Assembly (NCBI GenBank): GCA_028718745.1
Contig: JAQULF010000001.1
Location: 31,666 to 95,665, forward strand
DNA length: 64,000 nucleotides
Direction of reading: 5' to 3'
DNA from: Patescibacteria group bacterium
GTDB taxonomy: Bacteria; Patescibacteriota; JACPGU01
Below the pieces are notes generated by a model, which saw only the letters and a list, made by a program, of their open reading frames with translations, had not been told where the DNA came from and made no database searches. The stretch's first letter is position 1, and every line of letters begins with the position of its first letter. Shown one piece after another: positions 9,314 through 60,431 of this stretch. The translations under genes and the position numbers were made by a program.

Positions 9314-9441
9314 GGGGAAACTCCGCCCCTACAATGCGTTGGCTCCATGCTCCTGCGTGGAGCCAGTTTGTTCATTGATGTATTAAAAAATCCTTTTAAA
9401 TGCTTTATGTACATTAAGGTTCCATGCGGGAGCATGGAACC
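9314..9441. repeat. Intergenic nest of GC-rich palindromic elements related to the in-frame elements in tsaE and tlyA
   Basis: ggggaaactccgcccctacaatgcg (shares cgcccctacaa-tgc with tsaE element), gcgttggctccatgctcctgcgtggagcc (29/29 identical to tlyA element at 55384-55412), and palindrome ggttccatgcgggagcatggaacc. Confidence 0.8.
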
Positions 9442-19471: not shown

Positions 19472-19543
19472 GTCCTCGTAGTTTAATGGATAGAATGCGG
19501 CCCTGCGAAGGCTGCGATCCAGGTTCGATTCCTGGCGAGGATA
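19472..19543 (+). tRNA. tRNA-Arg (anticodon GCG), G1-U72 acceptor pair
   Basis: cloverleaf: acceptor GTCCTCG/CGAGGAT, D-arm with GG, anticodon stem CGGCC/GGCTG with loop CTGCGAA, T-arm CCAGGTTCGATTCCTGG; discriminator A. Confidence 0.6.
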
Positions 19544-19559
19544 TTTAATTGTAGCAAAG

Positions 19560-19625
19560 GGTTCGCCCAGTCATCCGACTGGGCGACCGATCGAATGATC
19601 GGTCGATTCCTAGTGGGGATATTTT
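19560..19625 (+). other. tRNA 3-prime-end-like remnant: two GC-rich hairpins plus degenerate T-loop/acceptor copy
   Basis: gcccagt-catccg-actgggc and gaccgatc-gaat-gatcggtc hairpins then ggtcgattcctagtggggata, resembling the tRNA 3-prime end ggttcgattcctggcgaggata. Confidence 0.4.
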
Positions 19626-19832: not shown

Positions 19833-20960
19833 GTGGCAAAAAAATCAGGAAATGAGTATGCGGATGCAGGAGTGGACTACACAAAGCTGGAAGCTTTCAA
19901 AGACATGATGATCGAAGTCGGCAAGCGCACCACGGGATTCCCGAACATTCGCAATGTATGCGTCGTTACTGACGCAATCCATGCGCACGGCGCGGTTTTC
20001 GAGTACACCGGCGATCAGCCTCATATCTGGTGTAAGACTCAGGAGGGGCTCGGAAACCTGAACTGGATCGCCGAGTGGATGCTTCAATTCGACGGCACGA
20101 AACGCAGCCGTTATGATATCCTCGGTCGCGCAGCAGCGCTTCTCATCGCGATTGATGTCATCGCGCAGGGAGCAATGCCGGTAATCTGGACGGATGAAAT
20201 CGCCGCGGGAGACAGTGACTGGTTCACCAACAAACAGAGGGCGGCCGACTATGCACAGGGATGCTTCGATGTCTGCAAGGAAATCGGCATGGCTCTGCCG
20301 GCCGGCGAATCACCCGCGCTCAAGTATCTCATCAAAGCGGAGCCGCCTGTTACAAGTGCTCCGTCATTGAGCGGATCCATAACCGGCATAATCGCTCCGA
20401 AAAGCCGGCTTATCACGGGCGCAAAATTGCGAGCAGGAGATGTGATTCTGGGCGCTCCCTCATCAGGGCTTCATTCTAACGGAATATCGCTCGTGATCAA
20501 GGAGGTCATGAAACTCTCGGATCAGTTCCTTACCAAGCTCAACGGCCAGACAGTGGGCGAGGAATGTCTCATTCCGATTCCATCGTATGTCAAATTGGTC
20601 GAAGCCCTACTCGAAAACGAAATCGAAATCCACGCCATATTGCCGGCAACCGGAGACGGCGTCGGCAAAATCGCGTTCGACAAACGCCCGTTCACCTACC
20701 GGGTCCACACATGGTGGCCAAAGATACCGCCGCTGTTCCTTTTCATGAAAGAACTGGGCGTGACCCTCGAAGGATGCCTCAAAACCTTCAACTGGGGCGC
20801 CGGAATCTACTTCTATGTGCCACGCTCAAGCGTTGACTCGGCAGTGGAAGTCGCCGCGCACGCCGGGTATGATCTGCTCGAACTCGGCCGGGTTGAAGAA
20901 GGAGAACGAAAAACCATCTTCGAGCCGGAAAGCGTCACGCTTCCCCCGCCGGGAGAATAA
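19833..20960 (+). CDS. AIR synthase-related (PurM superfamily) protein, GC-rich, GTG start
   Basis: N-terminal YADAGVDYTKLEAFK like PurM YKDAGVDI; conserved APSSGLHSNGISLV (PurM GxHSNGxSL motif); ORF much GC-richer than surroundings; RBS aaacggggg before GTG. Confidence 0.6.
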   Translation: MAKKSGNEYADAGVDYTKLEAFKDMMIEVGKRTTGFPNIRNVCVVTDAIHAHGAVFEYTGDQPHIWCKTQEGLGNLNWIAEWMLQFDGTKRSRYDILGRAAALLIAIDVIAQGAMPVIWTDEIAAGDSDWFTNKQRAADYAQGCFDVCKEIGMALPAGESPALKYLIKAEPPVTSAPSLSGSITGIIAPKSRLITGAKLRAGDVILGAPSSGLHSNGISLVIKEVMKLSDQFLTKLNGQTVGEECLIPIPSYVKLVEALLENEIEIHAILPATGDGVGKIAFDKRPFTYRVHTWWPKIPPLFLFMKELGVTLEGCLKTFNWGAGIYFYVPRSSVDSAVEVAAHAGYDLLELGRVEEGERKTIFEPESVTLPPPGE

Positions 20961-21057: not shown

Positions 21058-21459
21058 ATGTATAGAATAATAGAAGGAGGAATTTTGGAACATCCTGATT
21101 TTTTAAATCCCAGAGACATTTTACAAAATATATTAGATGTCCTGCATTGCCCTTTTTGCGGATGCGATTATTCGGAAGAAAATGCCAGACTGAAAGCCCA
21201 ATTTGAAAAAGATTATGTGGCGCACCTGACCTGTCCCGAATGCCAAAATAGCATTATTGCCAGTTTTTCCTATAAAAATAATAGGGGGATTTTTGAACAA
21301 AGATCTCCCAATCAGAAAATGGATATGGCTATGACGGAAATGGTAAAATTCGTCGCCAAAGGAACCATTAGCGATAATGATGTTATGAATTTATATAAAG
21401 AAATGGGGGACTTTGACGGAGATTTTCAAAGAATATTCAAAATAAAATATAAAAAATAA
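21058..21459 (+). CDS. hypothetical zinc-ribbon protein
   Basis: 133 aa with CPFCGC...CPECQ; ORF track extends upstream into previous gene, start placed at first Met after terminator. Confidence 0.45.
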   Translation: MYRIIEGGILEHPDFLNPRDILQNILDVLHCPFCGCDYSEENARLKAQFEKDYVAHLTCPECQNSIIASFSYKNNRGIFEQRSPNQKMDMAMTEMVKFVAKGTISDNDVMNLYKEMGDFDGDFQRIFKIKYKK

Positions 21460-21561
21460 AAAACACAAATTAAAAACTTAAAAACATCTTTGTTTTTATA
21501 TATTTAAGTATTTGTTTTTTATCTTTTATTTTTAATATTTTATATTAACTAACAAAAAAAC

Positions 21562-22257
21562 ATGTCTGACTACAAACTAAAAGCTGAAAAGCGAGATATC
21601 ACCGGTAGTGGTGTTGAAGAATTGAGAGTGGCCGGAAACATTCCTGCTGTTGTTTATGGCAAAGGAAAAGAAAACCAAAATTTAACCGTTAATAAAATTG
21701 AATTCAATAAGATTTTTTCCAAAGCCGGAGAAAACTCTTTGATTGATCTTGAAATTGAAGGCGCTGGGATGCACAATGTTTTGGCTAAAGAAGTTCAATT
21801 CAATGCGGTAACCGATGAGCCGATTCATATTGATTTTTATGAAGTTAAAATGGATGAAGAAATTGAAACTGAAGTGCCTTTGAAATTCATTGGCGAATCA
21901 TTGGCCGTTAAAGATCTGGAAGGAACTTTAATTACCAATAAGACCGAAGTCACAGTAAAATGTTTGCCGGCAAATATCCCTCATGAAATTGAAATCGACC
22001 TTGGCAAACTGGCAACCTTTGAAGATTCTATTCAAGCCAAAGATATCAAATTACCGGCAAAAGTTGAATTGCTGACCGATTTGGAAGAAACTATCGCATT
22101 GGTAAATCCTCCACGATCTGAAGAAGAATTAAAGGAACTAGAATCTGAAGTAGTTGAAAATGTGGAAGCGGTGGAAGCAACTGCGGAGAAGAAGGAGGAA
22201 GGTGAGGCTGAAGGTGAACAACCGGCCGAAGCAGAAAAGAAGGAAGAGAAAGAATAA
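21562..22257 (+). CDS. rplY: 50S ribosomal protein L25 (general stress protein Ctc form) with acidic C-terminal tail
   Basis: N-terminal KAEKRDITGSGVEELRVAGNIPAVVYGKG typical of L25/Ctc; C-terminal EKKEEGEAEGEQPAEAEKKEEKE. Confidence 0.85.
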   Translation: MSDYKLKAEKRDITGSGVEELRVAGNIPAVVYGKGKENQNLTVNKIEFNKIFSKAGENSLIDLEIEGAGMHNVLAKEVQFNAVTDEPIHIDFYEVKMDEEIETEVPLKFIGESLAVKDLEGTLITNKTEVTVKCLPANIPHEIEIDLGKLATFEDSIQAKDIKLPAKVELLTDLEETIALVNPPRSEEELKELESEVVENVEAVEATAEKKEEGEAEGEQPAEAEKKEEKE

Positions 22258-22265
22258 TAAGTTAG

Positions 22266-22333
22266 GATTAAATGATTAAATGAATAAAGGATTGTATTTT
22301 CTAATCATTTAGTCTTTTATTCCTTTATTCATT
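22266..22333. repeat. AT-rich inverted-repeat element (AAATGATTAAATGAATAAAGGA family), copy 1
   Basis: gattaaatgattaaatgaataaagga ... taatcatttag ... tcctttattcatt; related copy at 53490-53578. Confidence 0.7.
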
Positions 22334-22373
22334 GAAATCTAAATGCTATAATAAACAAAAATAAAACAAATCT

Positions 22374-23402
22374 ATGTTGGAAGATTCTACTAAAAAAACT
22401 GTTCTCTTTGAAATTTCGTGGCTAAGTATTATTAAAGTTGTCGCCATTATTCTGGGCGTCTATTTGCTTTTCTATCTGGCAGACATTTTTCTGATCTTGT
22501 TTGTTGTTTTTATTCTAGCCTCCGCCCTTTCTCCTCTGGTAGACACGATGAAAAGCAAACTCAAAATACCTCGGATTATGTCGATCCTTCTAATCTACAT
22601 CGGACTTTTGTTAATTGTTGCCTTGACCATTTATGCCATCATTCCTCCTGCAATAGAGCAGCTGCAAAATCTATCGCAAAATCTACCTGATTATGCTAAA
22701 AAAATAACTTCGCTTTTCAGTTCGCTAAGTGAATCTCCCGTATCAACCACCAATTCTATTCAGTCGGCTTCTTCCACTTTGGGAAATGTAGCCGGAACTT
22801 TCGTTCAATCGGCCGGGACTTTCTTCGGCGGGTTAACTACTGTTTTCTATATTCTAATTTTAACCTTATTTCTGCTTTTGGAAGAAGATGGCATTCGCAA
22901 ATTTTTTATTTCCTTGCTACCCATCAGCCAGAAATCTTATGTTATCGAAGTTAGCAAGAAAGTCGCCGACAAAATGGGAGCTTGGCTTATCGGACAGGTT
23001 TCCTTGATGGGTATAATAGGTTTCGTTACTGCTCTAGGATTGTGGATTATCGGCGTACCTTATGCTTTGACTCTTGGCATTATCGCTTTCTTCCTAGAAG
23101 CAGTACCTACTGTCGGGCCCATCATCGCCGCTATTCCGGCCGTAATTATTGCCTATATGGATGCTCCCTGGAAAGCGGTGGTTGTCCTAATCTTTGCGAC
23201 TTTAATTCAACAATTAGAAAATCAATTTCTTGTTCCAAAAATAATGCAAAAAGCTCTTGGGATTTCTCCGTTTGTAACGCTCGTAGCGCTTCTTGTCGGC
23301 GGTAAACTAGCAGGGGTAATGGGCGTGCTTCTCGCCGTCCCAACCGTCGCTGCTCTCTCTGTTCTATCTAAGGAGTGGCCGAATATCAGGAAAAGGATCT
23401 AG
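22374..23402 (+). CDS. AI-2E family transporter (PerM/YhhT-like)
   Basis: 342 aa, 8 TM, typical AI-2E family architecture; paralog at 27991..28998. Confidence 0.85.
   Translation: MLEDSTKKTVLFEISWLSIIKVVAIILGVYLLFYLADIFLILFVVFILASALSPLVDTMKSKLKIPRIMSILLIYIGLLLIVALTIYAIIPPAIEQLQNLSQNLPDYAKKITSLFSSLSESPVSTTNSIQSASSTLGNVAGTFVQSAGTFFGGLTTVFYILILTLFLLLEEDGIRKFFISLLPISQKSYVIEVSKKVADKMGAWLIGQVSLMGIIGFVTALGLWIIGVPYALTLGIIAFFLEAVPTVGPIIAAIPAVIIAYMDAPWKAVVVLIFATLIQQLENQFLVPKIMQKALGISPFVTLVALLVGGKLAGVMGVLLAVPTVAALSVLSKEWPNIRKRI
23331..23402. repeat. Direct repeat copy 1 (3-prime end of AI-2E transporter gene)
   Basis: about 70 bp, about 85 percent identical to 26690-26761. Confidence 0.75.
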
Positions 23403-23482
23403 ACTAACTGTCTTTAAAATGAGAAGGGTTAAAAAGTTCGAAAAACATTGTTTTTATTTTTTAGTAATGATATTATGAGTGT

Positions 23483-23743
23483 ATGAATACAAAAACTGTC
23501 AAAAAAAGAGTAAAGGTGCTGGATATCGCGATGATACAAATTCCATTGTCCTCTTTGCGTTGCATCCTTTCTTATCCAAAAGAGAACAAAATTATTTGCG
23601 AGATTGATGTAAAAAGCATAGAGAGAGTGAATAAATCCAAAGATTTAGATGAAATAATCAATGAATCTCGCCTTGATTATGCGCTCGGAAATTACAAATC
23701 CTTTGCTTCCGCCAAAGATCTTATTGCTGAATTAAGATCGTAA
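23483..23743 (+). CDS. putative antitoxin (partner of downstream RelE/ParE toxin)
   Basis: 86-aa ORF 6 nt upstream of toxin gene; no strong motif. Confidence 0.4.
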   Translation: MNTKTVKKRVKVLDIAMIQIPLSSLRCILSYPKENKIICEIDVKSIERVNKSKDLDEIINESRLDYALGNYKSFASAKDLIAELRS

Positions 23744-23749
23744 ATAAAA

Positions 23750-24031
23750 ATGAAAATAAATCTCTCGCACAGATTTAAGAGATCATATAAAAAGCTACCC
23801 TCAAATATCAAGGATGATTTTGATAAAAGGATAGCTCTTTTTATTGATAATCCCAAAAATCCAAAATTGAAAGTGCATAAACTAAAAGGAAGACTGCAAA
23901 CTTGTTTGTCTTTTTATGTGCAAGATGGCTATAGGGTTCTTTTTGATTTTTCAGAAAATAATACCGAAGATAAGGTTGTTAATCTGCTCGATATCGGTTC
24001 GCATGATAAATATCGGAATTGGGAAAAATAA
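23750..24031 (+). CDS. Type II toxin, RelE/ParE family
   Basis: 93 aa; KLKGRLQTCLSFYVQDGYRVLFDFSENNTEDKVVNLLDIGSHDKY pattern of RelE/ParE/YoeB-like toxins. Confidence 0.65.
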   Translation: MKINLSHRFKRSYKKLPSNIKDDFDKRIALFIDNPKNPKLKVHKLKGRLQTCLSFYVQDGYRVLFDFSENNTEDKVVNLLDIGSHDKYRNWEK

Positions 24032-24149
24032 ATTCGCTAAAAAACATAATACACTATGTCCGTATTTCTAATTGAATTTTTTTATATCTTAGGGGAGATA
24101 AGGTGAAAATACTGTATTTTACAGTTCAAATTTTTGTTAAAATACTTTT

Positions 24150-24665
24150 ATGGATACTACTGTCTTTGAACAAATTAAAAGAATTAATGAACATGGACAA
24201 GAGTATTGGCGTGCTCGAGATTTGATGGTTACTCTCGGATATGTTGAATGGCGTAAATTTGAAGGTGCAATAGAAAGAGCAAAAGAAGCATGTACAAACA
24301 GTGGTCAGTCGACAAAGGATCATTTCGCCGGCGCCGCCAAAATGATAAAAATCGCTACAGGAACCCCAAAAGAAGCGATGAGAGAAGTTGATGACTATTA
24401 TTTATCTCGCTATGCTTGTTATCTCATCGCTCAAAATGGTGATCCGAGGAAGAAAGAAATTGCTCTCGCCCAAACATATTTTGCGGTACAAACCAGAAAA
24501 CAAGAAACGCAAGAATTTTTACACGAACTTTTTGAAGAAGATCGTGCGAGATTGGCTTTTAGAGAAGATATAAAAGAAAAAAACCGCAAACTTTTTGGAA
24601 CAGCAAAATCCGTGGGCGTGTCTGACTATGCGAATTTTCAAAGCCGACATTTTTATATAAAATAA
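24150..24665 (+). CDS. DNA-damage-inducible protein D (DinD)-like, Bro-N/KilA-N domain protein
   Basis: N-terminal FEQIKRINEHGQEYWRARDLMVTLGYVEWRKFEGAIERAKEAC resembles DinD/Bro-N family. Confidence 0.5.
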   Translation: MDTTVFEQIKRINEHGQEYWRARDLMVTLGYVEWRKFEGAIERAKEACTNSGQSTKDHFAGAAKMIKIATGTPKEAMREVDDYYLSRYACYLIAQNGDPRKKEIALAQTYFAVQTRKQETQEFLHELFEEDRARLAFREDIKEKNRKLFGTAKSVGVSDYANFQSRHFYIK

Positions 24666-24681
24666 GAACTTCCTTACCACT

Positions 24682-25131
24682 ATGAAAATAAAAACCCCAG
24701 GCAGGATTATCAACATCAGAAACTCATCATGGGATGATTACCGATATTGTTATGAGCTAACAAAAAGGAATATGCGACCTTTTTATATAAAGCATAAGCT
24801 TGAGTGGAAACCAAAAAGTTACCGGAGAAACTTCGATCCGAAATTTGTAAAGATTCTTGAGATTAACAATAGACGAATTGGCTTTTACAAGCTTTCATTT
24901 AAAGAAAATCATTGGCACTTGGGAGATTTACAAATTTCGGGTTTATTTAGGGGCAAAGGTATTGGCACCGAAATAATGAAACTAATTGAAAAAACTGTAA
25001 AAATGAAAGGTCGCAATTCTATAAAACTAAGAGTTTTTGTTGATAATCCTGCCCTGTCTTTATACAAAAAGACTGGCTATAAGATGATTGAACAACAAGG
25101 AAGTTCTTATTTGATGCACAAAAAGTTGTAA
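24682..25131 (+). CDS. GNAT family N-acetyltransferase
   Basis: LQISGLFRGKGIGTEIMKLIEKTVKMKGRNSIKLRVFVDNPALSLYKKTGY (acetyl-CoA binding motif A R/QxxGxG/A). Confidence 0.75.
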   Translation: MKIKTPGRIINIRNSSWDDYRYCYELTKRNMRPFYIKHKLEWKPKSYRRNFDPKFVKILEINNRRIGFYKLSFKENHWHLGDLQISGLFRGKGIGTEIMKLIEKTVKMKGRNSIKLRVFVDNPALSLYKKTGYKMIEQQGSSYLMHKKL

Positions 25132-25265
25132 TGTCGGTATCTGCGTCATATGTCGCCTAACACGGGATATCTGGCTACAGAAATTTGACACATTTAAAGA
25201 TTAAGCATTATGCAAAATAATTATTAGCGACTTTTATTAAATATAAAAAAGGCAAATTCATTTCT

Positions 25266-25871
25266 ATGTCAAAAATTGCAATTGATGTTGTCCTACTTCC
25301 TTCTGAATTAATGATAAAGAACGCAATTGAAGTTAATCAGAAACTATTGCGACAATATCCCAACAAAATTATCTTAAATGAGGAAGATTGTTTTCCTCAT
25401 ATTTCATTGTGTATGGGCGTTATAGATGAAAACGATATTCCTGCTATTTCCAAAATAATTGCAGAAATCGGAAAACAATTTTCTGTATTAAACCTGACCG
25501 CTACAGACTTATCAGCCGAAACTATTCCTGCAGGCGATAAAGTCGCTGATTTTACGATCCAACCTACAGAAAAACTTCAATTGCTTCATGAATTAATAAT
25601 GAAAGGGCTGTCGCAATTTTTGATATATAATCCTGCGGCCGATATGCTATTTACACCACCTGCTATAGAAGAGGTTACTTTCTATTGGATAAAAAATTAC
25701 CCCCATAAATCAAGTTTTGATAAATATAAACCGCACATTACATTAGGTTTTGGCGAAATAGCTTATACAGAATTGCCAATCCAATTTACATCATCAAAAC
25801 TCGCTTTATGTCAGCTTGGCAACTATTGTACCTGCAGAAAAATACTCGCTTCCACGGAATTAAAAAATTGA
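25266..25871 (+). CDS. 2H phosphoesterase superfamily protein (LigT/ThpR-like)
   Basis: two H-x-T/S-x motifs: PHISLCMG and PHITLGFG at the expected spacing. Confidence 0.55.
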   Translation: MSKIAIDVVLLPSELMIKNAIEVNQKLLRQYPNKIILNEEDCFPHISLCMGVIDENDIPAISKIIAEIGKQFSVLNLTATDLSAETIPAGDKVADFTIQPTEKLQLLHELIMKGLSQFLIYNPAADMLFTPPAIEEVTFYWIKNYPHKSSFDKYKPHITLGFGEIAYTELPIQFTSSKLALCQLGNYCTCRKILASTELKN

Positions 25872-25997
25872 ATTTGCCCTTTTAATTAAGGATTAATTAA
25901 TCCTGAACATTTGTCCCGTAAAACAATCAGAAAATTTTGCTTTTTTATTTGATATATTTAGAGGGGCGCAGCGGAGCTGCGAAGTTGAAGGACTATT

Positions 25998-26040
25998 TAG
26001 GGGGAAAACAAAAAGACGATCTATTAAGATCGTCTTTTTA
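25998..26040. terminator. Hairpin terminator, bidirectional
   Basis: aaaaagacgatc-tatta-agatcgtcttttt. Confidence 0.6.
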
Positions 26041-26275
26041 AAATCCAAGATGTTTTTGGTTATTTTGTGAAATTAATTGCGTCAATAAAATGCTGAAATC
26101 CATTATCGAATTCCTTATCAATACCACTACTTTGTTTTGATATTATTATGGTTTCATTATTATCGGGCGAGGTTAAATAATATTGTCTACAATTCATCAT
26201 ATTATAAAACATATTTTTAAATTATACAACAAAAAGATCCTTACAAAACAATGATCTCTGCGGTACAATAAAACT

Positions 26276-26680
26276 ATGAAACAACCAAAGAAATTAAATA
26301 ATGAAATTACTTTTTACCAAACACCCGACGGAGGAGTAAATATTGAGGTATTATATGCTGATGAAAACATCTGGCTAACCCAAAAACTGATGGCGGAACT
26401 TTTTGGATGTTCTGCAGATAATATATCTCTTCACTTAAAAAATATTTACAAAGAAAAAGAATTGGATGAAAGTTCAACTACCAAGGATTCCTCGGTAGTT
26501 CAAAAAGAAGGTAATAGAGCGATAAAAAGAAAATTCAACTACCAAGGATTTCTCGGTAGTCCAAACTTTGATAGAGAAAGAATATGAAGTTTATAGAAAA
26601 AAACAAGACAAGTTTTTTGAAAGTGATTTTGATAAAGAGGTAAAAAAACTAATTCAAGAATCCAAAAAGAAAAAGATACG
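26276..26680 (+). pseudogene. RhuM-family protein remnant (internal deletion plus frameshift)
   Basis: 26276-26587 encodes RhuM N-terminus (ITFYQTPDGGVNIEVLYADENIWLTQKLMAELFG...VQKEGNRAIKRK); RhuM-like C-terminus EVYRKKQDKFFESDFDKEVKKLIQESKKKKIRG is in another frame at 26585-26680; full-length RhuM is about 340 aa. Confidence 0.55.
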
Positions 26681-26689
26681 CGGCTAATC

Positions 26690-26761
26690 TGCATGCCGTC
26701 CCAACCGTCGCGGCTCTCTCTGTTCTATCTAAAGAATGGCCAAATATTAGGAAAAGAATTT
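26690..26761. repeat. Direct repeat copy 2 (diverged duplicate of AI-2E gene 3-prime end)
   Basis: gccgtcccaaccgtcgcggctctctctgttctatctaaagaatggccaaatattaggaaaagaatttaa vs gene end at 23331-23402. Confidence 0.75.
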
Positions 26762-26799
26762 AATTGCACTCTCATTTTTTGGCTTATCTAACTTAACTG

Positions 26800-26834
26800 T
26801 TGACAAAAAGTCGGCTTTTGTAGTATAATGCAGG
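26800..26834 (+). promoter_or_regulatory. Sigma70-like promoter (TTGACA-18-TATAAT)
   Basis: ttgacaaaaagtcggcttttgtagtataatg immediately upstream of ORF 26879. Confidence 0.6.
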
Positions 26835-26878
26835 GGTCTAAAAAGACAAATCTGATCGTTGAAAAGAGGTGTTTGCAC

Positions 26879-27346
26879 ATGAAAATTGTCAGCGCGCCTA
26901 AATCCCCCGAGATTATCGAGGGTCTGCGCAAGAAGCAGGAAGAATACCGGCGTCGATTCAAAGTTGAAAAATCCACCATCGCCTTCGCACTCGCACTCGT
27001 CATCATCGGTACAGCTCTGTTCATGATCACCGGCATCTACGGGTTCATGCTCCTCGTCTTTTCCGGAATCTGGCTCCTTGTTAGGTCCGGCGAAGGCTAT
27101 GTTGATACCCTCTACAAACGCTGGGTCATCAAGGAAAGGTTGAACCCCAAATTCATCGACACGGAAATCTATCTGTACATCGATGAAGCCCCCGAGTCCA
27201 TCATCGCCAGAATGATCGGGGCGGAAAAATGCGGGGAGATTTTCAATCGCGCAATGAGAGTCATAAATGATTATAGCAAGACGGGAGGAAAAAACACCTT
27301 CAAGGATATAGGCGACCAGAGAGTTCCTTCTGCTCTTCTGATGTAA
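26879..27346 (+). CDS. hypothetical membrane protein (GC-rich ORF)
   Basis: start at MKIVSAPKSP after promoter; two TM helices; opposite-strand ORF 26747..27355 judged spurious. Confidence 0.45.
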   Translation: MKIVSAPKSPEIIEGLRKKQEEYRRRFKVEKSTIAFALALVIIGTALFMITGIYGFMLLVFSGIWLLVRSGEGYVDTLYKRWVIKERLNPKFIDTEIYLYIDEAPESIIARMIGAEKCGEIFNRAMRVINDYSKTGGKNTFKDIGDQRVPSALLM

Positions 27347-27393
27347 CCCCGTCATTCACAATGACAACAAAAGGCAAACCTGCGGGTTGCCTT

Positions 27394-27888
27394 TTACTTT
27401 GCCAACAAATAAATCGAAACTATTACAAAAGGAATCTGGGTGACAATGCCCCAAAAGATTCTTTTTTTTGTGTAGATATTCATATCCTCGGCTGTTTCCC
27501 AAATATCCTTTGGCTTTTCATCAAACCAGTGTACATTGCGATGAAATTTTAAAAAGAAGGAAAGTGGTTTGATTTTTAAAATTCTGATAATAAGCTCAAT
27601 CAAGTCCGGCAAAGCGCAAGCTGCTCCTCCAAGAAATGCAGCAATCCAAGTTGCGGAATTATATCCTCGCAAAATGCCAATCGTAACAAAAAGCGCAAAA
27701 GCCAAAAACGGATCCAGTAGAACTAAAATAAGTGTTTTAATTTTCTTTAAATGTTTGTATCCGTAATTCCAATGCGGAACCAAATCCATGATAAAATGAA
27801 GAGCGAATCCAAAAACAACCGCCAAAATAGGATTGCCGGTAGCTTTGCCGATAGCGGCGCCAGCTAGAAAATGAGAAGAAATAACCAT
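27394..27888 (-). CDS. hypothetical polytopic membrane protein (possibly DUF457-like membrane-bound hydrolase)
   Basis: 164 aa, 4 TM, conserved His residues (HFIMDLVPHWNYGYKH). Confidence 0.45.
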   Translation of the reverse strand: MVISSHFLAGAAIGKATGNPILAVVFGFALHFIMDLVPHWNYGYKHLKKIKTLILVLLDPFLAFALFVTIGILRGYNSATWIAAFLGGAACALPDLIELIIRILKIKPLSFFLKFHRNVHWFDEKPKDIWETAEDMNIYTKKRIFWGIVTQIPFVIVSIYLLAK

Positions 27889-27936
27889 AGAACAATTTTA
27901 AAAATTAAATTTTGAATTTTAAATTTATTTCTTAAC

Positions 27937-27965
27937 TTTACAATTTACAATTTAAAATTTACAAT
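27937..27965. promoter_or_regulatory. Three direct TTTACAAT repeats in divergent promoter region
   Basis: tttacaatttacaatttaaaatttacaat between minus gene start 27888 and AI-2E paralog start 27991. Confidence 0.45.
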
Positions 27966-27990
27966 GTGAGTATTCTTATTATAATTCATT

Positions 27991-28998
27991 ATGCCTCAAT
28001 CCACAAATTCAAATGTCAGTTACGAAATTTCCTGGTCCAGCATCTTAAAAGTGTTGGTTGTTATTGCGTTTATTTATCTGCTCTTTTACTTATCCGGCGT
28101 GATTTTGATGCTTTTTACCGTTATTATCTTGGCTGTTTCCCTCTCTCCAATTGTTGAAAAATTAAAAAACAAGCTCCACATACCCCGAATCTTGGCGATT
28201 ACCATAATTTATATTTTAATTCTGGCTTTTGTCTTTTTAACCGTTTACACTATTGTGCCACCGGTGATGGAACAGGTAAAAAACCTTTATCAGATCTTGC
28301 CGGATTACGCCAAAAATATAGTTCCCTTTTTAAAATCGGTAAATAGTTATAGTCCGGCCAGTAGCGCAACGACAGGTGGGATCGCCCAAACATTAAGCGG
28401 ATTTTTTGGCAGTATTTTAAATTTCTTCCTGATCTTGGTTCTAACATTTTTCTTATTAATTGAGGAAGGTGGTTTTGTTAAATACATCGTTTCGCTTTTT
28501 CCGGTCTCTGATAAAGCTTATGCAATCACCATCGGCAAAAAAATATCCAACAAAATCGGCTCCTGGTTTGCCGGACAGATTTTAATTATGGTAATTATCG
28601 GAGTAGTGAATGCCTTAGCTATGTGGGCCGTCGGAATTCCTTATGCTCTGGTTCTGGGACTACTAGCCTTTATTTTTGAATCGGTACCCAATATCGGGCC
28701 CATTGCCGCTGCTGCCCCAGCCTTGGTTTTGGCCTACATCGATGCCCCATGGAAAGCGGTCTATGTCTTGGTTTTCACTCTCGTTTTACACCAGCTTTCC
28801 AATCAATTTCTAGTACCAAAAGTTATGGGGAAAATTTTGAATATCTCCGCCTTTGTGATAATTTTAGGTTTAATTATAGGAGGGGAGTTAGCCGGAATAA
28901 CCGGTATGATTCTAGCTCTACCCGTAGTAGCTGCCATTCAGGTAATGGCGCAAGAATGGCCGAATATTAAAACGAGAATTCCAAATAATGAAAAATAG
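27991..28998 (+). CDS. AI-2E family transporter, paralog 2
   Basis: 335 aa, collinear with 22374..23402 (ISWSSILKVLVVIAFIYLLFYLS...; C-terminal EWPNIK). Confidence 0.85.
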   Translation: MPQSTNSNVSYEISWSSILKVLVVIAFIYLLFYLSGVILMLFTVIILAVSLSPIVEKLKNKLHIPRILAITIIYILILAFVFLTVYTIVPPVMEQVKNLYQILPDYAKNIVPFLKSVNSYSPASSATTGGIAQTLSGFFGSILNFFLILVLTFFLLIEEGGFVKYIVSLFPVSDKAYAITIGKKISNKIGSWFAGQILIMVIIGVVNALAMWAVGIPYALVLGLLAFIFESVPNIGPIAAAAPALVLAYIDAPWKAVYVLVFTLVLHQLSNQFLVPKVMGKILNISAFVIILGLIIGGELAGITGMILALPVVAAIQVMAQEWPNIKTRIPNNEK

Positions 28999-29431
28999 TG
29001 CTTCTGCCTCCAATAAAAAAGCGTTTCATGATTATACAATATCAGACACGCTTGAAGTAGGAATAAAACTAACCGGACCGGAAGTGAAATCAGTAAAAAG
29101 CGGTTCGTTATCGCTGAAAGAAAGTTTTGTCACGATTGAAAATGGAGAATTATGGATAAAAAACCTGCATATTTCACCCTACAAATTTGCGAATAATGTT
29201 GATTATAAGCCAACCAGAGATCGGAAATTATTAGCCAACAAAAAAGAAATCGCCTCCCTTTATGGAGCGACCAAAGAAAAAGGAATGACGATAGTTCCCA
29301 CAAAAACTTATCTCAAAAACGGTATAATTAAACTTGAGATCGGATTGGCAAAAAGCAAAAAGAAATGGGATAAGCGCGAGGATATAAAAAAGAGGGATTT
29401 AAACAAAGAATCCAAGAGAGGAATGATGTAA
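28988..29431 (+). CDS. smpB: SsrA-binding protein SmpB
   Basis: KKAFHDYTISDTLEVGIKLTGPEVKSVKSGSLSLKESFV...KLLANKKEI typical SmpB. Confidence 0.9.
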   Translation: MKNSASASNKKAFHDYTISDTLEVGIKLTGPEVKSVKSGSLSLKESFVTIENGELWIKNLHISPYKFANNVDYKPTRDRKLLANKKEIASLYGATKEKGMTIVPTKTYLKNGIIKLEIGLAKSKKKWDKREDIKKRDLNKESKRGMM

Positions 29432-30246
29432 TCAAAAGGTGAATTCGGCAAAACCCAAAGACCCAAAAGAACCAAAACTATACCGGCAATAAGGTGTAGT
29501 TTTCTTATATTTCTCTGCTTCCAATGTTCGGTTTTGTCTACTCTCAAAAATCCTAAATATACACCTAACATAATTACTATCAATGGTAGAGAAAAGAGAA
29601 TATTGTAATACGCCAGAATCGGAAGAATCAAAAGCTTGCTGGTACTTTGGGATAAAACACCTAAGACAAAAACATAAGGTCCGCCGGTACAAGGTAGTTC
29701 AAAAGCGGTAACTAAAACACCGGTCAAAAACGCAACCGGAACAGTCGTAGCTTTGGCTAAAAGAAGCGACATTTTTGGTCTCCATTTTCTCGGAATTTCT
29801 ACAAGAAATCCGCCGCCGCCATACCAGAAATAATCCTTGATATTGAGTAATCCCATCACAGTTCCGAAGATACCCATTATCCAGTGAAATATGGTTGGGT
29901 TGATCCATGTATTGATTTTTAAAGCATAAAAAATACCTGCTCCGAAAAGGAAGTAAGTAATGTAAAGTCCGATGATAAAAGCCGATCCGACTTTCAAAAT
30001 CTTTTTTCGGTCGCCAAAAAACACGAGCGCGGATAAAACAAATAGGAGTACTGCAATAGCGCAAGGATTGATTGAGTCAACAAAAGCTGATGAGGTTATC
30101 AGCCAAAAAGTCGGTACCTTGGGCGCAAGACAATCTGTATTTTGAATCGTGCAAGTTCCCGCAGCCCAGGTAGCCGCTGGCGCGGCCAAAGAAAACAAAA
30201 AAACAAAAAAACAAAAAAACAAATTTTTCCAATTTATTTTCTTCAT
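29308..30246 (-). CDS. DsbD/CcdA-like thiol-disulfide transmembrane protein
   Basis: 312 aa, signal peptide, multiple TM, paired Cys motifs INPCAIAV and ELPCTGGPY; 3-prime end overlaps smpB by about 120 nt. Confidence 0.45.
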   Translation of the reverse strand: MKKINWKNLFFCFFVFLFSLAAPAATWAAGTCTIQNTDCLAPKVPTFWLITSSAFVDSINPCAIAVLLFVLSALVFFGDRKKILKVGSAFIIGLYITYFLFGAGIFYALKINTWINPTIFHWIMGIFGTVMGLLNIKDYFWYGGGGFLVEIPRKWRPKMSLLLAKATTVPVAFLTGVLVTAFELPCTGGPYVFVLGVLSQSTSKLLILPILAYYNILFSLPLIVIMLGVYLGFLRVDKTEHWKQRNIRKLHLIAGIVLVLLGLWVLPNSPFDYIIPLLDSLFKSLFFISSRLSHFFLLFANPISSLIIPFLR

Positions 30247-30374
30247 AAACAGATTTTATCATAAATAGCCAGATTTTCCAAGAACAAAAAGAAATCTCGG
30301 CTTGCCGAGATTTCTTTAAAATTGTTTTCTTACTTTCTTGTTTTCTTGCTTTATTGCTTTCTTGTTTTTTTGTC

Positions 30375-30932
30375 CTAAAACTGTACCTTTACCGCTTCTC
30401 TCTCCGCTGCTGCCGCTTCAAACATCAACTTGGGAGTTTTGAATCCTAGAATGCCGGCAACCAACATGGTTGGAAACACAGCAATTTTGATGTTAAATTC
30501 TCGAACATTGGCATTGTAGTATCTTCGAGAAACCTCAATCTTATCCTCGGTTTCGGTCAATTGAGTCTGAAGATCCAAGAAATTTTGATTCGCTTTCAAA
30601 TCAGGATAAGCTTCAGCTACGGCAAAAAGAGATTTCAAGGTGTTGGTTAGCATATTTTCCGCTTCCGCTCTATCAGCCGGAGTCTTGGCATTCATGGCTG
30701 CCGTTCTGGCCTTAGTAACTTCTTCAAAAACTCCTTTTTCATGAGCTGCATAGCCCTTGACTGTTTCAACCAAGTTTGGAATCAGGTCATATCTCCTTTT
30801 TGTCTGCACATCAATGTCGGCAAAAGCCTCATTGCAGCGGACATTTAAATTAACCAATCCGTTAAAAATAGCAATTATCCATAAAAGAATAATGGATCCA
30901 ACTACGATTAATCCAATTACTAGTGATGACAT
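30375..30932 (-). CDS. lemA: LemA family protein
   Basis: N-terminal TM then NGLVNLNVRCNEAFADIDVQTKRRYDLIPNLVETVKGYAAHEKGVFEEVTKAR typical LemA. Confidence 0.85.
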   Translation of the reverse strand: MSSLVIGLIVVGSIILLWIIAIFNGLVNLNVRCNEAFADIDVQTKRRYDLIPNLVETVKGYAAHEKGVFEEVTKARTAAMNAKTPADRAEAENMLTNTLKSLFAVAEAYPDLKANQNFLDLQTQLTETEDKIEVSRRYYNANVREFNIKIAVFPTMLVAGILGFKTPKLMFEAAAAEREAVKVQF

Positions 30933-31212: not shown

Positions 31213-32964
31213 ATGAAAAAAATCCTTTCCTCAATCTTCTTGCTTTCTTGCTTTCTTGCTTTCTTGCTTTCTTGTCCCCCCGCTTCCGCCCGAACCCCCG
31301 ATCAAATTTACGATGATTATGTCCAAGATCTAACAACCGATATTATTGTAAACCAAGACTCTTCCTTAGATATTACCGAAAATATAACCTGGGACTTTGC
31401 CGATATTCCTGATAAACACGGTATTTTTCGAATGTTGCCTACTTTTTATCAGAAAACGAACAGTGAAAAGGTAAAAATACCCATCGAAAATATTAGCGTT
31501 ACCGACCTTAATAATAATCCCATACCATATAGTGAATCGACCAGTTCCGGTATCTTGAGCTTGAAAATCGGCGATGCAGACAAGACTGTCAGTGGGATTG
31601 TGAACTATGTTATTAAGTATAGATATAAGAATACTATCCGTTTCGACAATCAAAATTTTGATGAATTTTACTGGAATCTTAATGGTAATTTTTGGGAAAA
31701 GGAAATTGATAAATTTACCGCCAACATCACTTTTCCATCAGGAATCACAAAAAATAATGTAATTGAAATTAATAAATATGACGGTAGTTTTGGGTCTAAA
31801 AGTAATGTTTTATCAGACTATAAGTGGATCGCTGACAATACTATTCAGGTGACCAGCCAAAAAACTCTGTTGCCAAAAGAGGGCATTACTCTCTCGGTTA
31901 CTTTTCCAAAAAATATCATTTCTCCACCTGTTTTATCGTTTTGGGAAAAATACGGCGATCTGATTCTCGGGCTACTTCTTTTGGCACTGCCTATTCTAGT
32001 CTTTTTAATCTGCTTCACACTGTGGTGGAAATACGGCCGTGATATTGGCCCGGGCCGTGCCGTCGCACCTGAATTTGAAATTCCGGACGATATGAATCCG
32101 ATGGAAATGAGTGTTTTTTTAAGTAACGGCAGTCTTAAGTCCAGCGCTATCTCGGCTGCCATTGTGAACTTAGCAGTTAGGGGGTATTTGAAAATTGAAG
32201 CTGTACCAAAACAGGGAATATTTTCATCTGCTGATACCAAATTGATAAAATTGAACAAAGCGACCGAGAAATTGACTGATGCGGAAAAAAATCTATTAAA
32301 TTATCTCTTGGGAAGTAGCAATGAAGTAAAAATTTCAGACCTAAAAAATCAATTCTATAAATATATTCCAAAACTTAAGGAGACTTGTTTTAATAAACTA
32401 TCCGATCAAAAGATGTTCGAAAAGAAAGGGTTTGGCATTCAGTCAACTATGCTTGTCATCGGCGCTCTCGGGATAGGAGGATTATTTTTCGCCCCAGCCA
32501 TAATCTCTACTCCGATTTTTTATGTGATTTCCATAGTTTCAATTGCCATTATCTTTATCTTTGCCGCTTTGATGCCTAAAAGAAGTCCTGAAGGTGAAGA
32601 CCTGCTGTGGAGAATCAAAGGGTTTAAGATGTACATGATGACAGCCGAAAAATACCGCCAGAAATTTATTGAAAAGGAAGGTCTTTTTGAAAAGTTTCTG
32701 CCTTATGCTATGCTCTTTGGCATTACCGGTCTTTGGATTAGCAAGATGAAAGAAATTTACGGAGAAGAGTATTTTAATACTTATCATCCGATCTGGTATA
32801 CAGGATATATTGGGAATTTTAATATCGATAATTTCAGCAGTCAGCTTTCGGCCGTATCAAGCTCTATGTCCTCAACCATGAGCTCATCTCCTTCTTCTTC
32901 CGGTTCCGGAGGGGGAGGCTTTTCCGGTGGTGGTGGTGGCGGTGGCGGTGGCGGAAGCTGGTAA
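31213..32964 (+). CDS. DUF2207-type membrane protein with C-terminal Gly/Ser-rich tail
   Basis: 583 aa; signal peptide, large extracytoplasmic domain, TM segments, C-terminal SGSGGGGFSGGGGGGGGGGSW; genomic pairing with lemA is typical. Confidence 0.7.
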   Translation: MKKILSSIFLLSCFLAFLLSCPPASARTPDQIYDDYVQDLTTDIIVNQDSSLDITENITWDFADIPDKHGIFRMLPTFYQKTNSEKVKIPIENISVTDLNNNPIPYSESTSSGILSLKIGDADKTVSGIVNYVIKYRYKNTIRFDNQNFDEFYWNLNGNFWEKEIDKFTANITFPSGITKNNVIEINKYDGSFGSKSNVLSDYKWIADNTIQVTSQKTLLPKEGITLSVTFPKNIISPPVLSFWEKYGDLILGLLLLALPILVFLICFTLWWKYGRDIGPGRAVAPEFEIPDDMNPMEMSVFLSNGSLKSSAISAAIVNLAVRGYLKIEAVPKQGIFSSADTKLIKLNKATEKLTDAEKNLLNYLLGSSNEVKISDLKNQFYKYIPKLKETCFNKLSDQKMFEKKGFGIQSTMLVIGALGIGGLFFAPAIISTPIFYVISIVSIAIIFIFAALMPKRSPEGEDLLWRIKGFKMYMMTAEKYRQKFIEKEGLFEKFLPYAMLFGITGLWISKMKEIYGEEYFNTYHPIWYTGYIGNFNIDNFSSQLSAVSSSMSSTMSSSPSSSGSGGGGFSGGGGGGGGGGSW

Positions 32965-37348: not shown

Positions 37349-37370
37349 TTAATAATTCTAATACATTTAA

Positions 37371-37753
37371 TGGACCTGGAGGGAATCGGACCCTCGTGCA
37401 AAAAGTTAAAAAAGCAGCCTCTACAAGTTTAGTTCCGGTTGGTATTTTGGACAGAAGTAACTTGTCCCGCCAAAGGCGGGAAACCGAAACAAAATAATTC
37501 TATCCTATCCTTAATAGTCTTAACCCCGCCTACCAAGGAATACCTGGGCGGGGAGCAGCCCAATAAGTTGACACCGCATTCATATCCTTGGGCGAAATAT
37601 GGTGCGATGCCTGCTTGTCGTTTTTTAGGCGAAAGCAGGGGCAAAATTTGTTTTGCCTTGTGTTGTTGTTTGATTAGTTTTAAGAGTTTACAAACATCAC
37701 TCTACTTGCATCCGCTTTTTTAAGGATCTTTTTGGCGATACCAATGCAGGCCC
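37371..37753 (-). ncRNA. ssrA: tmRNA (SsrA)
   Basis: minus-strand 5-prime GGGCCUG pairs with 3-prime CAGGUCC-A giving G3-U70; T-arm GAGGGTCCGATTCCCTC; internal tag frame GGC AAA ACA AAT TTT GCC CCT GCT TTC GCC TAA (GKTNFAPAFA) about 96 nt from 5-prime end; TATAAT just upstream. Confidence 0.8.
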
Positions 37754-55155: not shown

Positions 55156-55928
55156 GGTAACATTTTAAATTTTAAATTAAAAAGAAATTCTTTATTTCCT
55201 TTCGCCCCCAAAATAGGTGACTCAACCTCTCCTAAAACTTCGAATCCATTTTCCTCGCACCATTTCCTAAAATCTTCTAATAACTTCTGATGAATCTTCG
55301 GATCCTTAATCACTCCCTTTATCTTGTCGACAATACTTTTCCCGGCTTCAAATTGTGGTTTGAAAAGAATGACAATTTCAGGAGCGTTGGCTCCATGCTC
55401 CTGCGTGGAGCCTGAATGTACAATATTCTTAATCACCGGCAAAATCTTTTTTAAAGAAATAAATGACACATCAATTACAAATAGATCTATTTTTTCCGGC
55501 AAGCTTTCTAAATATCTAAAATTTACTCCTTCCATCACCACTACTCTTGGATCATTTCTTAAGCGCCAATCTAATTGTCCTTTGCCCACATCGATAGCAT
55601 AAACTTTTTCAGCTCCGTTTTGCAAGGCAAAATCCGTAAACCCGCCGGTAGAAGAACCGATGTCGGCCACTATTTTGTTTTTGAAATTTAATTTGAAAGC
55701 TTTCGCCGCCGCTTCTAATTTTTCGGCGCCTCTGCCCACATATTTTGAGGTTTCCAAAATACCAATTTTAGCATCTTCGTCGAACTTTGATCCCGGCTTG
55801 GTTTCTTTTTTATCATCAACTAAAACCTGCCCGGCCATAATTAAGGCTTGAGCCTTTTCGCGAGAATCCGTTAATTTCCTTTCAAAGAGAAGTAGATCGA
55901 GGCGTTTTTTAAAAGCTTTTTTCATCAT
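55131..55928 (-). CDS. tlyA: TlyA family rRNA 2-prime-O-methyltransferase (S4 + FtsJ domains), with about 10-aa in-frame insertion
   Basis: RLDLLLFERKLTDSREKAQALIMAGQV (S4), ADIGSSTGGFTDFALQNGAEKVYAIDVG, DVSFISL; extra HSGSTQEHGANAP before KPQFEAGK. Confidence 0.85.
   Translation of the reverse strand: MMKKAFKKRLDLLLFERKLTDSREKAQALIMAGQVLVDDKKETKPGSKFDEDAKIGILETSKYVGRGAEKLEAAAKAFKLNFKNKIVADIGSSTGGFTDFALQNGAEKVYAIDVGKGQLDWRLRNDPRVVVMEGVNFRYLESLPEKIDLFVIDVSFISLKKILPVIKNIVHSGSTQEHGANAPEIVILFKPQFEAGKSIVDKIKGVIKDPKIHQKLLEDFRKWCEENGFEVLGEVESPILGAKGNKEFLFNLKFKMLPCYYMLEK
55379..55412. repeat. GC-rich palindromic element inside tlyA
   Basis: caggagc-gttggctccat-gctcctg overlapping ggctcca-tgctcctgcg-tggagcc; 29-bp identical to intergenic copy at 9336-9364. 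Confidence 0.85.
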
Positions 55929-58647: not shown

Positions 58648-58712
58648 AATGGCCCCTTTCTAAAAAATTATTTTTATATTAATTGGATTGTTGCTTTCTT
58701 GTTTCCTTGTCT

Positions 58713-59480
58713 TTAAAGTTCTTCGTCTTTCAATAATTCCGCCAATTTCTTCTCCAGCTGTTCTTTTCTTTCCGCTTCGGTCATTTGCTTCCTAACCGGT
58801 TTTCTCTCTTCCATTTCAGCTTCTTTGGCCGGTTTTTCCTTGTCCGCATCACTTTGTGAATCAATGTGGGCGGGTTCAACAATCTCTTCCTTAGCAATTT
58901 CTCTCTCCTTTTTATTTGTTTCAACCTCTCCCTGCTCGGGCGCAATATATTGCGCCCCTACGGGTTCGTCTGATTCTTCTTCTTGATTCTTGATTCCTAA
59001 TTCTTGATTCTCTTCTTTAATTTTCTCAACCGGAGCTTCAACCGCTTCTACACCAACTGGCGGATTTTCTTCTTTGACTTCCTCAACTTCTTTCTTTTTA
59101 GCAAACTTTCTTGGTCTTCTCGTTTCTTCTTCGTTCTTTTCCTCAAAACCTCTCTTCGGTTTATCTAGTGCTCCTTCTTCAAAGAAAGGGGATCCTTCTA
59201 TAAAATCGACGATCAAATAGCGGAGAATTTTTTCATTAAGGTTTAATTCTTTGTTTAATTTATTGGTTTCTTCAGGTTTAATATCAAAAATGAAGACATA
59301 ATAATAGCCAAAACTATTTTTGGCAATTTTATAGATCAATTTTCGCTTACCCCAAAAGACCTCTTTTTCAACCTTGCCGCCTTTGGATTCAATCAGTTTT
59401 TTGACATCTTTCGCAATATCCGCCGCTCTGTCTTCGGTGTAATTTTCACTAACAATAAACGAGATTTCGTATTTTTTCAT
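58713..59480 (-). CDS. rpsF: 30S ribosomal protein S6 with about 150-aa Glu/Lys-rich C-terminal extension
   Basis: MKKYEISFIVSENYTEDRAADIAKDVKKLIESKGGKV...WGKRKLIYKI; rpsF-ssb-rpsR order. Confidence 0.85.
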   Translation of the reverse strand: MKKYEISFIVSENYTEDRAADIAKDVKKLIESKGGKVEKEVFWGKRKLIYKIAKNSFGYYYVFIFDIKPEETNKLNKELNLNEKILRYLIVDFIEGSPFFEEGALDKPKRGFEEKNEEETRRPRKFAKKKEVEEVKEENPPVGVEAVEAPVEKIKEENQELGIKNQEEESDEPVGAQYIAPEQGEVETNKKEREIAKEEIVEPAHIDSQSDADKEKPAKEAEMEERKPVRKQMTEAERKEQLEKKLAELLKDEEL

Positions 59481-60247: not shown

Positions 60248-60431
60248 GACGACACCTCCATATAAGATTTTAAGGCGCGGTCTTCAGCCTTAATTAGTTA
60301 AATTATAGCACAATATAGCAAAAAAACAAATTAAATTTGTTTTTTTGATTTCTTGCTTTTTTGTTTTCTTATCCTATTTCCCCAAATTCCTCAACGCTTC
60401 TTTGAGTTTTTTTCGGAGTCTTTGACATTGC

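Follow-up and report, generated by a model that had tools for sequence, protein, structure and literature searches.

A duplicated AI-2E transporter gene end brackets accessory genes in a Patescibacteria genome and may mark a decayed integrative element

INTRODUCTION

A direct repeat of a gene end around accessory genes is the usual scar of an element that has inserted into that gene end. Islands and prophages at the 3′ ends of tRNA and tmRNA genes show this arrangement, with direct repeats produced by duplication of the target end, accessory cargo between them, and frequent decay to integrase-less, "grounded" islands. Protein-coding genes can be treated in a similar way. At icd of E. coli, the elements e14 and phage 21 supply a replacement 3′ end and leave the native end orphaned as icdC, and the two copies differ mostly at synonymous positions (PMC6379469, PMC13626634). 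Other protein-coding targets of phage integration have been tabulated (PMC12540744). Here, we describe a locus in a Patescibacteria metagenome-assembled genome in which an AI-2E family transporter gene is followed by accessory genes and then by a second copy of its own last codons. An initial annotation of this locus had presented its protein-coding target as a departure from the norm, a view that the behavior of e14 and phage 21 at icd overturns. Throughout, "the window" denotes the whole 64-kb stretch of DNA that was analyzed.

RESULTS

The end of an AI-2E transporter gene is present twice

The first of two AI-2E family transporter genes in the window (22374..23402, forward strand) is intact. 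Its 342-aa product matches Pfam PF01594 (E = 5e-68) over profile positions 5–326 of 327, and the gene is in frame and full length, equal in length to orthologs that are 88–95% identical. A second AI-2E paralog is found at 27991–28998, in tandem or nearly so with the first. The last 69 nt of the first gene, comprising 22 sense codons and a stop, occur again downstream on the same strand. The left (attL-like) copy, r1 (23334..23402), is the end of the transporter gene itself, with its last 22 codons and a TAG stop. The right (attR-like) copy, r2 (26695..26763), is an orphan consisting of the last 22 codons and a TAA stop, with no start codon. The initial annotation had reported a direct repeat of the transporter 3′ end of about 70 bp, and the repeat was recovered in essentially the same place. 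The copies agree at 61 of 69 bases (88%), or 90% over 68 nt in the repeat search, with a BLAST E value of 8e-19, and they form the longest direct repeat of the window that is not low in complexity. Similarity has sharp edges, starting at a codon boundary and ending with the stop codon, and the flanks of the two copies are 25–40% identical, which is the background level.

Both copies encode the peptide AVPTVAALSVLSKEWPNIRKRI followed by the stop. All eight differences between them, the stop codon counted in, are synonymous third-position changes, an outcome with a P of about 3e-5 (2–5e-5 in simulations of eight random substitutions), which shows that each of them evolved as a functional gene end. 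In the closest species (L003 and L010), the gene ends in the same peptide, and r1 and r2 each differ from these tails at 8–10 sites. Because the divergence of r1 from r2 equals that between separate species of the clade, one of the two arrived horizontally, from another lineage. Where Lys and Glu codons differ between the copies, r2 has AAA and GAA and r1 has AAG and GAG, and the body of the transporter gene shows r2-like usage (AAA to AAG, 16:1; GAA to GAG, 8:1). This favors r2 as the native end, which is our reading of it, though codon usage is a weak hint because orthologs vary at those same sites. Comparison with orthologs gave no answer as to the native copy, third codon positions being near saturation.

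The initial annotation had also considered that the second copy might belong to another, diverged AI-2E pseudogene. Apart from r2, no further AI-2E homology was found in 23403–27400, including the sequence upstream of r2. The tail of the paralog at 27991–28998 has only 59% peptide identity to r2, so r2 was not derived from it. Chance similarity or an assembly artefact was a further consideration, as the source is a metagenome-assembled genome. Two independent Logan contigs (L001 and L046, both from SRR22315506) reproduce r1, r2, and their junctions at 99.96–100% identity. The repeat is thus not a product of assembly, and, together with the BLAST E value, these contigs effectively refute chance and artefact alike.

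Accessory genes between the repeats are AT-rich and partly truncated

The 3.3 kb between r1 and r2 has a GC content of 31% (range 29–35%) vs ~37–46% in the flanking genes, and every gene assigned within it lies on the forward strand. An 86-aa ORF (23483..23743), with no family match in Pfam, PHROG, or NCBIfam, is a putative antitoxin by position alone, 7 nt upstream of a gene for a 93-aa ParE/RelE-like type II toxin (23750..24031; PF15781, E = 5e-8; TIGR02385, E = 7e-8; phrog_1213, E = 2e-10). This putative pair is intact. There follows a DinD-like (Bro-N) gene (24150..24665) of which the first ~164 of ~275 residues are left, matching NF008573 over positions 10–171 of 288 (E = 7e-61) and phrog_8036 over positions 23–176 of 290. 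It is cut at ~60% of its length, with homologs spanning 262–300 aa, and in DNA alignment its homology to a full-length counterpart in L049 stops at 24641. Next come a GNAT acetyltransferase of 149 aa (24682..25131; PF00583, E = 9e-11) and a probable 2H phosphoesterase-like protein of 201 aa (25266..25871), for which the PF13563 match (E = 1e-3) is below the cut-off and the translation holds two HxS/T motifs (PHISL and PHITL). Six-frame translation of the following 404-bp gap (25872..26275) gave no credible ORF, and no recombinase similarity was found there. The last gene (26276..26587) is a RhuM remnant that retains only the N-terminal ~90 residues. It was recognized by tblastn to annotated RhuM proteins (E = 3e-21), aligning to residues 4–91 of a 344-aa RhuM, and has no match in Pfam, NCBIfam, or PHROG. 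The remnant contains an internal 61-bp tandem duplication at 26468–26565, and its frame-shifted tail continues to a stop at 26685–26687. The cargo proposed by the initial annotation therefore stands for the RelE/ParE toxin, which has profile matches, the Bro-N/DinD protein, in partial form, the GNAT, and the RhuM remnant; the proposed antitoxin is without a family match, and Pfam gives the 2H assignment weak support.

Beyond r2, a perfect sigma-70-type promoter sequence (26800–26829, forward strand) lies 5′ of an ORFan membrane-protein gene (26828..27346, forward strand), which is a 172-aa ORF, or 155 aa from the NCBI start at 26879. This segment (26800..27346) has 48% GC and is outside the repeat pair. 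No homolog of the ORFan (26828/26879–27346) was found except itself, and it is absent in all relatives examined. At least two events have hence left their mark on the locus, and this ORFan probably came in separately. The first right-flank gene common to relatives is a conserved 164-aa gene (27394..27888, reverse strand), 68–73% identical in L005, L009, and L010. Compared with the relatives, the extra segment runs from 23403 to ~27393, ORFan included, so that the island extent of 3.3 kb given by the initial annotation fits the distance between the repeats but not the whole of the extra DNA. As a separate matter, an upstream tRNA-Arg was considered as the anchor of a similar island around a 55%-GC gene and was rejected, the only repeat being a degenerate copy ~60 nt downstream.

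The slot downstream of the transporter gene varies among relatives

Thirteen related loci (among L002–L020) keep the order L25, AI-2E, a variable slot, the 164-aa gene, and SmpB. None of the 13 has the island cargo, a second tail copy, or a related element at the same target. The initial annotation had named beforehand, as evidence against integration, relatives with the same gene order and no repeat; what relatives lack is the island and the repeat together, which leaves its reading standing. The 164-aa gene adjoins the transporter gene in L010, L011, L015, and L020, and in L010 the distance is 115 bp with no island between. The nearest relative has ≤81% DNA identity to the window, which limits the empty-site comparison, and with the ORFan right of r2 missing from all 13, none offers a true empty site. 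In every lineage sampled, the slot 3′ of the AI-2E gene is variable and without repeats. Some relatives hold other toxin-antitoxin pairs there, likewise with no repeat, showing that cargo can reach this slot by other routes. In L009 and L019, two AI-2E copies stand just 5–42 bp apart.

DinD-like genes adjoin recombinase genes in viral contigs

The initial annotation had seen no remaining integrase, and this was upheld: neither the island nor the set of ORFs of ≥150 aa across the 64 kb includes a tyrosine or serine recombinase gene. A tblastn search with eight recombinases taken from DinD-linked modules also found no remnant. Among viral contigs, DinD matches occurred at 25 loci, at least 12 of which have a recombinase. 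In these contigs, full-length DinD genes near contig ends are immediately followed by genes for tyrosine or serine recombinases, and the Streptococcus satellite phage Javan19 is annotated with the same DinD-recombinase arrangement. The DinD of the window is cut exactly where such a module would continue. Its closest homolog (79% identity), from a Microgenomates genome, has GNAT and NUDIX genes after it and no adjoining integrase. The 2H, RhuM, and GNAT genes of the island gave no loci in viral contigs, and the ParE toxin gave a single weak match (L048; 43% identity over 60 residues). Comparison of island DNA with phage and plasmid records returned nothing beyond short dinD and rhuM patches.

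DISCUSSION

We put at roughly 0.55 the probability that 23403–26694 is a decayed integrative element, inserted into the AI-2E gene at its 3′ end by site-specific recombination, that gave this gene a surrogate end. Such an element would be a genomic island or the relic of a prophage or satellite, and its attachment site would have included the last 23 codons of the gene in recoded form. Past the crossover point, r1 would be the element-derived end, and the gene would still end correctly because the attachment site brought these codons with it; the displaced native end would have become the orphan r2 at the far junction. An integrase, which presumably made both junctions, would later have been lost along with the C-terminal 40% of DinD and most of RhuM, fixing the island in place. 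As far as can be judged from its sequence, the element is inactive. Searches for an integrase, a remnant of one, a sister element, and a true empty site were all negative, and integrase-mediated insertion is therefore something we infer from the intact target, the orphan copy, and the AT-rich cargo with broken mobile genes. Those latter features fit the proposal of the initial annotation, in which an integrative element duplicates the end of its target and so restores it.

The main rival dispenses with an integrase. Through homology-facilitated illegitimate recombination with DNA from a related species, a donor AI-2E gene and its downstream accessory genes could have replaced the resident gene, with a homologous join on the left and an illegitimate join on the right at codon 320/321, and r2 would be the leftover last 69 nt of the resident gene. 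This accounts equally well for the synonymous-only, species-level divergence of r1 and r2, and it explains the absence of an integrase. The toxin-antitoxin pairs that relatives carry directly 3′ of the gene, as ordinary parts of the chromosome and with no repeat, make a donor order of gene then cargo plausible, and the slot has been rearranged in every lineage sampled. However, the illegitimate junction would have had to leave just the terminal 23 codons, at a codon boundary and 7 nt past the stop of the last island gene, and the presence of truncated mobile-element genes as cargo is left unexplained. A weaker point is that the r1 Lys and Glu codons at the differing sites depart from those of the gene body. 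Taken together, we consider this route rather unlikely, though one to be reckoned with.

Duplication within the locus could instead have given rise to a third AI-2E copy in tandem, of which r2 alone survives after the rest was deleted or overwritten by accessory genes. Two AI-2E paralogs are already present, and the closely spaced copies of L009 and L019 show that duplication has occurred in the family. Yet no relative has a third copy or a remnant of one, no AI-2E similarity is left upstream of r2, and the tail peptide of the second paralog is too different for that gene to be the source. Moreover, r1 and r2 have diverged like the tails of different species, so that an in-place duplication would predate the species splits, and there is no trace of one in L003 or L010. 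We regard a third copy as improbable. A broader reading of the decayed element would make the slot just 3′ of the AI-2E gene a clade-wide capture site, to which integrase-less miniature elements mobilized in trans repeatedly delivered small cargo such as toxin-antitoxin pairs, each with its own recoded version of the final 23 codons, and would make the window the sole surviving footprint; this we think very improbable.

Should the decayed-element reading be correct, the AI-2E transporter gene would join the list of protein-coding integration targets, and a Patescibacteria (CPR) genome would be shown to contain a fossil integrative element. The restriction of the r1 and r2 differences to synonymous positions also offers a simple, reusable test, by which a gene end acquired horizontally can be told apart from one duplicated in place.

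Among known systems, the DinD-integrase end module of Firmicutes prophages and satellites, such as that of Javan19, shares with the window a Bro-N DinD of the same family (~50% identity). In that module, DinD is immediately upstream of the integrase at the element end, whereas the DinD of the window is truncated at ~164 residues and no integrase follows. Islands at tRNA and tmRNA genes resemble the window in their target 3′-end repeats, accessory cargo, and integrase-less decay. Unlike those islands, the window has a protein gene as its target, with the surrogate conserved at the peptide level; its third codon positions were thus free to differ, which an RNA target would not allow. Closest are e14 and phage 21 at icd, where, as proposed for the window, the 3′ end of a protein gene houses the element, the gene is functional, and the native end is left orphaned at the opposite junction. 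In e14, the duplication spans 163 bp and includes two conservative amino-acid changes; in the window, it spans 69 bp with no amino-acid change. Whereas e14 keeps its integrase and still excises, the window has no integrase and gives no sign of activity. The host and target differ as well, being a Patescibacteria bacterium and an AI-2E transporter gene rather than E. coli and icd. Seen against these systems, the proposed element illustrates a well-known mechanism in worn-out form, and no new mechanism is implied.

RESULTS

A duplicated gene end brackets the island

The source of the window is a Patescibacteria (CPR3-like) metagenome-assembled genome carrying an intact AI-2E family transporter gene (22374–23402; 342 aa; Pfam PF01594, profile positions 5–326 of 327). 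The last 22 codons and stop of this gene (r1, 23334–23402) recur at 26695–26763 (r2), beyond an island of ~3.3 kb. The two copies are identical at 61 of 69 bases (BLAST E=8e-19, excluding chance similarity) and form the longest non-low-complexity direct repeat in the 64-kb window. Similarity sets in sharply on a codon boundary and extends no further than the stop codon, with the flanks at background identity. r2 has no start codon and lies 7 nt past the stop codon that closes the final reading frame of the island; no further AI-2E similarity was found in 23403–27400. A second AI-2E paralog (27991–28998) was ruled out as the origin of r2, its tail peptide being only 59% identical to that of r2.

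Both repeats, each with both junctions, were recovered in two independent Logan contigs of run SRR22315506, L001 (window 21507–24149) and L046 (window 24123–30034), and assembly error is therefore excluded. These contigs overlap by only 27 nt (24123–24149), between the toxin gene and DinD, so that this independent assembly breaks inside the island, which could be due to strain variation or low coverage. At its other end, L001 terminates within a large AT-rich inverted repeat (21434–21551; 54-nt arms, 78% complementary) upstream of the L25 gene.

All eight differences between r1 and r2 fall at third codon positions and are synonymous, TAG versus TAA included, so that both encode the peptide AVPTVAALSVLSKEWPNIRKRI*. 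In simulation, eight random substitutions preserved peptide and stop with P = 2–5e-5, even with a strong transition bias; the copies therefore diverged while each functioned as a gene end. An in-place duplicate that later decayed was rejected as the source of r2, given that every difference is synonymous. We then compared the same 69 nt with the closest sampled species, represented by loci L003 and L010. The r1 tail differs from these at 10 and 9 sites, respectively, and the r2 tail at 8 and 10, while L003 and L010 differ from each other at 8, as do r1 and r2; all four encode one identical peptide. By this measure, the divergence of r1 from r2 is roughly that between tails from separate species of the clade, so one of the two is of horizontal origin. 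Codon usage in the gene body (AAA 16 : AAG 1; GAA 8 : GAG 1) fits r2, not r1, a weak hint that the native copy is r2, though we place little weight on this because orthologs differ among themselves at the sites concerned.

Island cargo resembles that of mobile elements

The island interior (23403–26694) has 29–35% GC, versus ~37–46% in flanking genes. It contains an 86-aa ORF matching no family; a ParE/RelE-like toxin gene directly after it, starting 7 nt downstream; a DinD-like Bro-N gene matching only positions 10–171 of the 288-position DinD model; a GNAT acetyltransferase; a probable 2H phosphoesterase (weak Pfam match and two HxS/T motifs); a 404-bp stretch lacking any credible ORF; and a RhuM remnant (residues 4–91 of ~344) that contains a 61-bp tandem duplication. 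The duplication (26468–26565) includes two 37-nt copies, 92% identical, each with a hairpin. Between the GNAT and 2H genes, a non-coding motif of ~50 nt (25152–25203) is 85% identical to intergenic positions 5296–5346 of L049, from a Microgenomates genome, where an integrase N-terminal fragment of 49 aa lies ~700 bp away.

The initial annotation held that no integrase is left, and indeed no recombinase was found in the island or among ORFs of ≥150 aa across the 64-kb window, and eight recombinases of the tyrosine and serine types, used as tblastn queries, revealed no remnant. Full-length DinD homologs (262–300 aa) were found on 25 viral contigs, with the gene near the contig end, and a recombinase gene follows DinD in at least 12 of the 25. 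Tyrosine integrases (PF00589) were confirmed ~130–280 bp from DinD in L023, L027, L031, L037, and L041, and serine recombinases lie ~110–125 bp downstream in L021 and L022; weaker or more distant serine-recombinase matches occur 0.35–1.5 kb downstream in L025, L028–L030, and L032. In the annotated Streptococcus satellite phage Javan19, DinD is followed 46 nt on by the integrase, at the element's end. Nucleotide homology of the window DinD to its closest full-length homolog ends at 24641, and, judged against these arrangements, the gene is cut at the point where a DinD–recombinase module would continue. As a caveat, that closest homolog (79% identity, Microgenomates genome) has no integrase behind it, its downstream neighbors being GNAT and NUDIX genes, which are unrelated.

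The locus is a variable slot in relatives

Thirteen distinct related loci (AI-2E protein 66–95% identical, DNA ≤81% identical) share the order L25 – AI-2E copy 1 – variable segment – 164-aa gene (minus strand) – (AI-2E copy 2) – SmpB – SfLAP. None of the 13 has the island cargo or an integrase at the locus, or a second copy of the AI-2E gene tail. The simplest state is seen in L010 (92% protein identity), where the 164-aa gene follows the AI-2E gene after 115 bp. The slot downstream of the AI-2E gene is variable in all loci sampled, and its contents carry no repeats: a RelB/ParE pair in L005, a DUF7387 gene in L003 and L004, and a 73-aa ORF in L002. L019 has a repeat-free DUF7387/HicA pair downstream of the second AI-2E copy. 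At L005/L006 14548–15965 (77% AI-2E identity), reverse-transcriptase and bAvd genes, apparently a diversity-generating retroelement, adjoin the SfLAP gene; the corresponding window position has neither.

Sequence to the right of r2 also occurs in none of the 13 relatives. The segment 26800–27346 holds a perfect TTGACA-18-TATAAT promoter and, behind it, an ORFan membrane-protein gene (48% GC) with no homolog but itself among 5.8 billion proteins, called on the plus strand by NCBI and on the minus strand by the Logan caller. The extra segment relative to relatives therefore reaches from 23403 to ~27393 and is the record of several events, not of a single one. The island bounds proposed initially hold as far as the r1/r2 repeats go, but the right-hand edge has a more complex structure than first described.

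Other features of the window

An AIR-synthase-related (PurM-like) gene (19833–20960) has 52–57% GC in a ~37% GC genome; it occupies the syntenic position of the relatives' AIRS gene yet is only 21% identical to AIRS, and may be a foreign homolog replacing it. Directly downstream of tRNA-Arg (19472–19543), the hairpin-rich sequence 19544–19625 terminates in a degenerate copy of the tRNA-Arg T-arm and acceptor 3′ end (GGTCGATTCCTAGTGGGGATA versus GGTTCGATTCCTGGCGAGGATA), which may be the scar of an old attachment site or else a fragment of a tRNA. A tmRNA gene (37368–37753, minus strand) was identified with Rfam (120.8 bits, full-length model match) and is absent from ARAGORN output. A 39-nt GC-rich, hairpin-containing sequence occurs at 9336–9374 and 55384–55422, 90% identical and 46 kb apart, and arrays of an 8-nt unit (TTTCTTGC-like) lie in intergenic or gene-start positions at 30311–30381, 31229–31283, 58672–58726, and 60334–60372.

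DISCUSSION

We favor, at a probability of roughly 0.55, the reading that the island is a decayed integrative element in the 3′ end of the AI-2E gene. Such an element would have entered by site-specific recombination, its attachment site carrying a recoded copy of the terminal AI-2E codons; r1 would then be the hybrid tail now ending the gene and r2 the displaced native tail, and loss of the integrase would have come later, as part of the decay by which DinD and RhuM were truncated. Recombination with related-species DNA and no integrase, by homology on the left and an illegitimate joint at codon 320/321 on the right, is the main rival; it would account equally well for the lack of an integrase and for the synonymous differences between the copies, and is consistent with the repeat-free cargo of relatives; it requires a fortuitous junction, however, and leaves the mobile-element character of the cargo unexplained, and we regard it as possible but distinctly less probable. 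That r2 is the remnant of a third tandem AI-2E paralog seems very unlikely, since the duplication would have to be older than the species splits, and none of the relatives shows any trace of such a copy.

The initial annotation had set two findings against its own reading, the same gene order without a repeat and an r2 belonging to an AI-2E pseudogene; on both, the results favor that reading. Its proposal that the gene end was duplicated and restored as by an element is borne out by the repeat architecture, whereas the role of an integrase is something we infer, not observe. Overall, the initial reading holds in part. We found neither an integrase nor a sister element or an empty site, and the element seems to be inert.

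Elements that integrate at the 3′ end of a protein-coding gene and restore that end are textbook, icd being one example of a target, and the earlier view of a protein-coding target as unusual was not warranted. The host phylum and the target gene are what set the present case apart; a full-text literature search found no paper on an AI-2E transporter as an integration site with an integrase. Further phage integration targets inside protein-coding genes have been tabulated (PMC12540744). At Escherichia coli icd, e14 and phage 21 duplicate a 163-bp 3′ segment, the prophage provides the gene end, and most of the differences in the orphan icdC are synonymous (PMC6379469; PMC13626634). This is exactly the behavior proposed for the window element, with the target 3′ end replaced and the native end orphaned.
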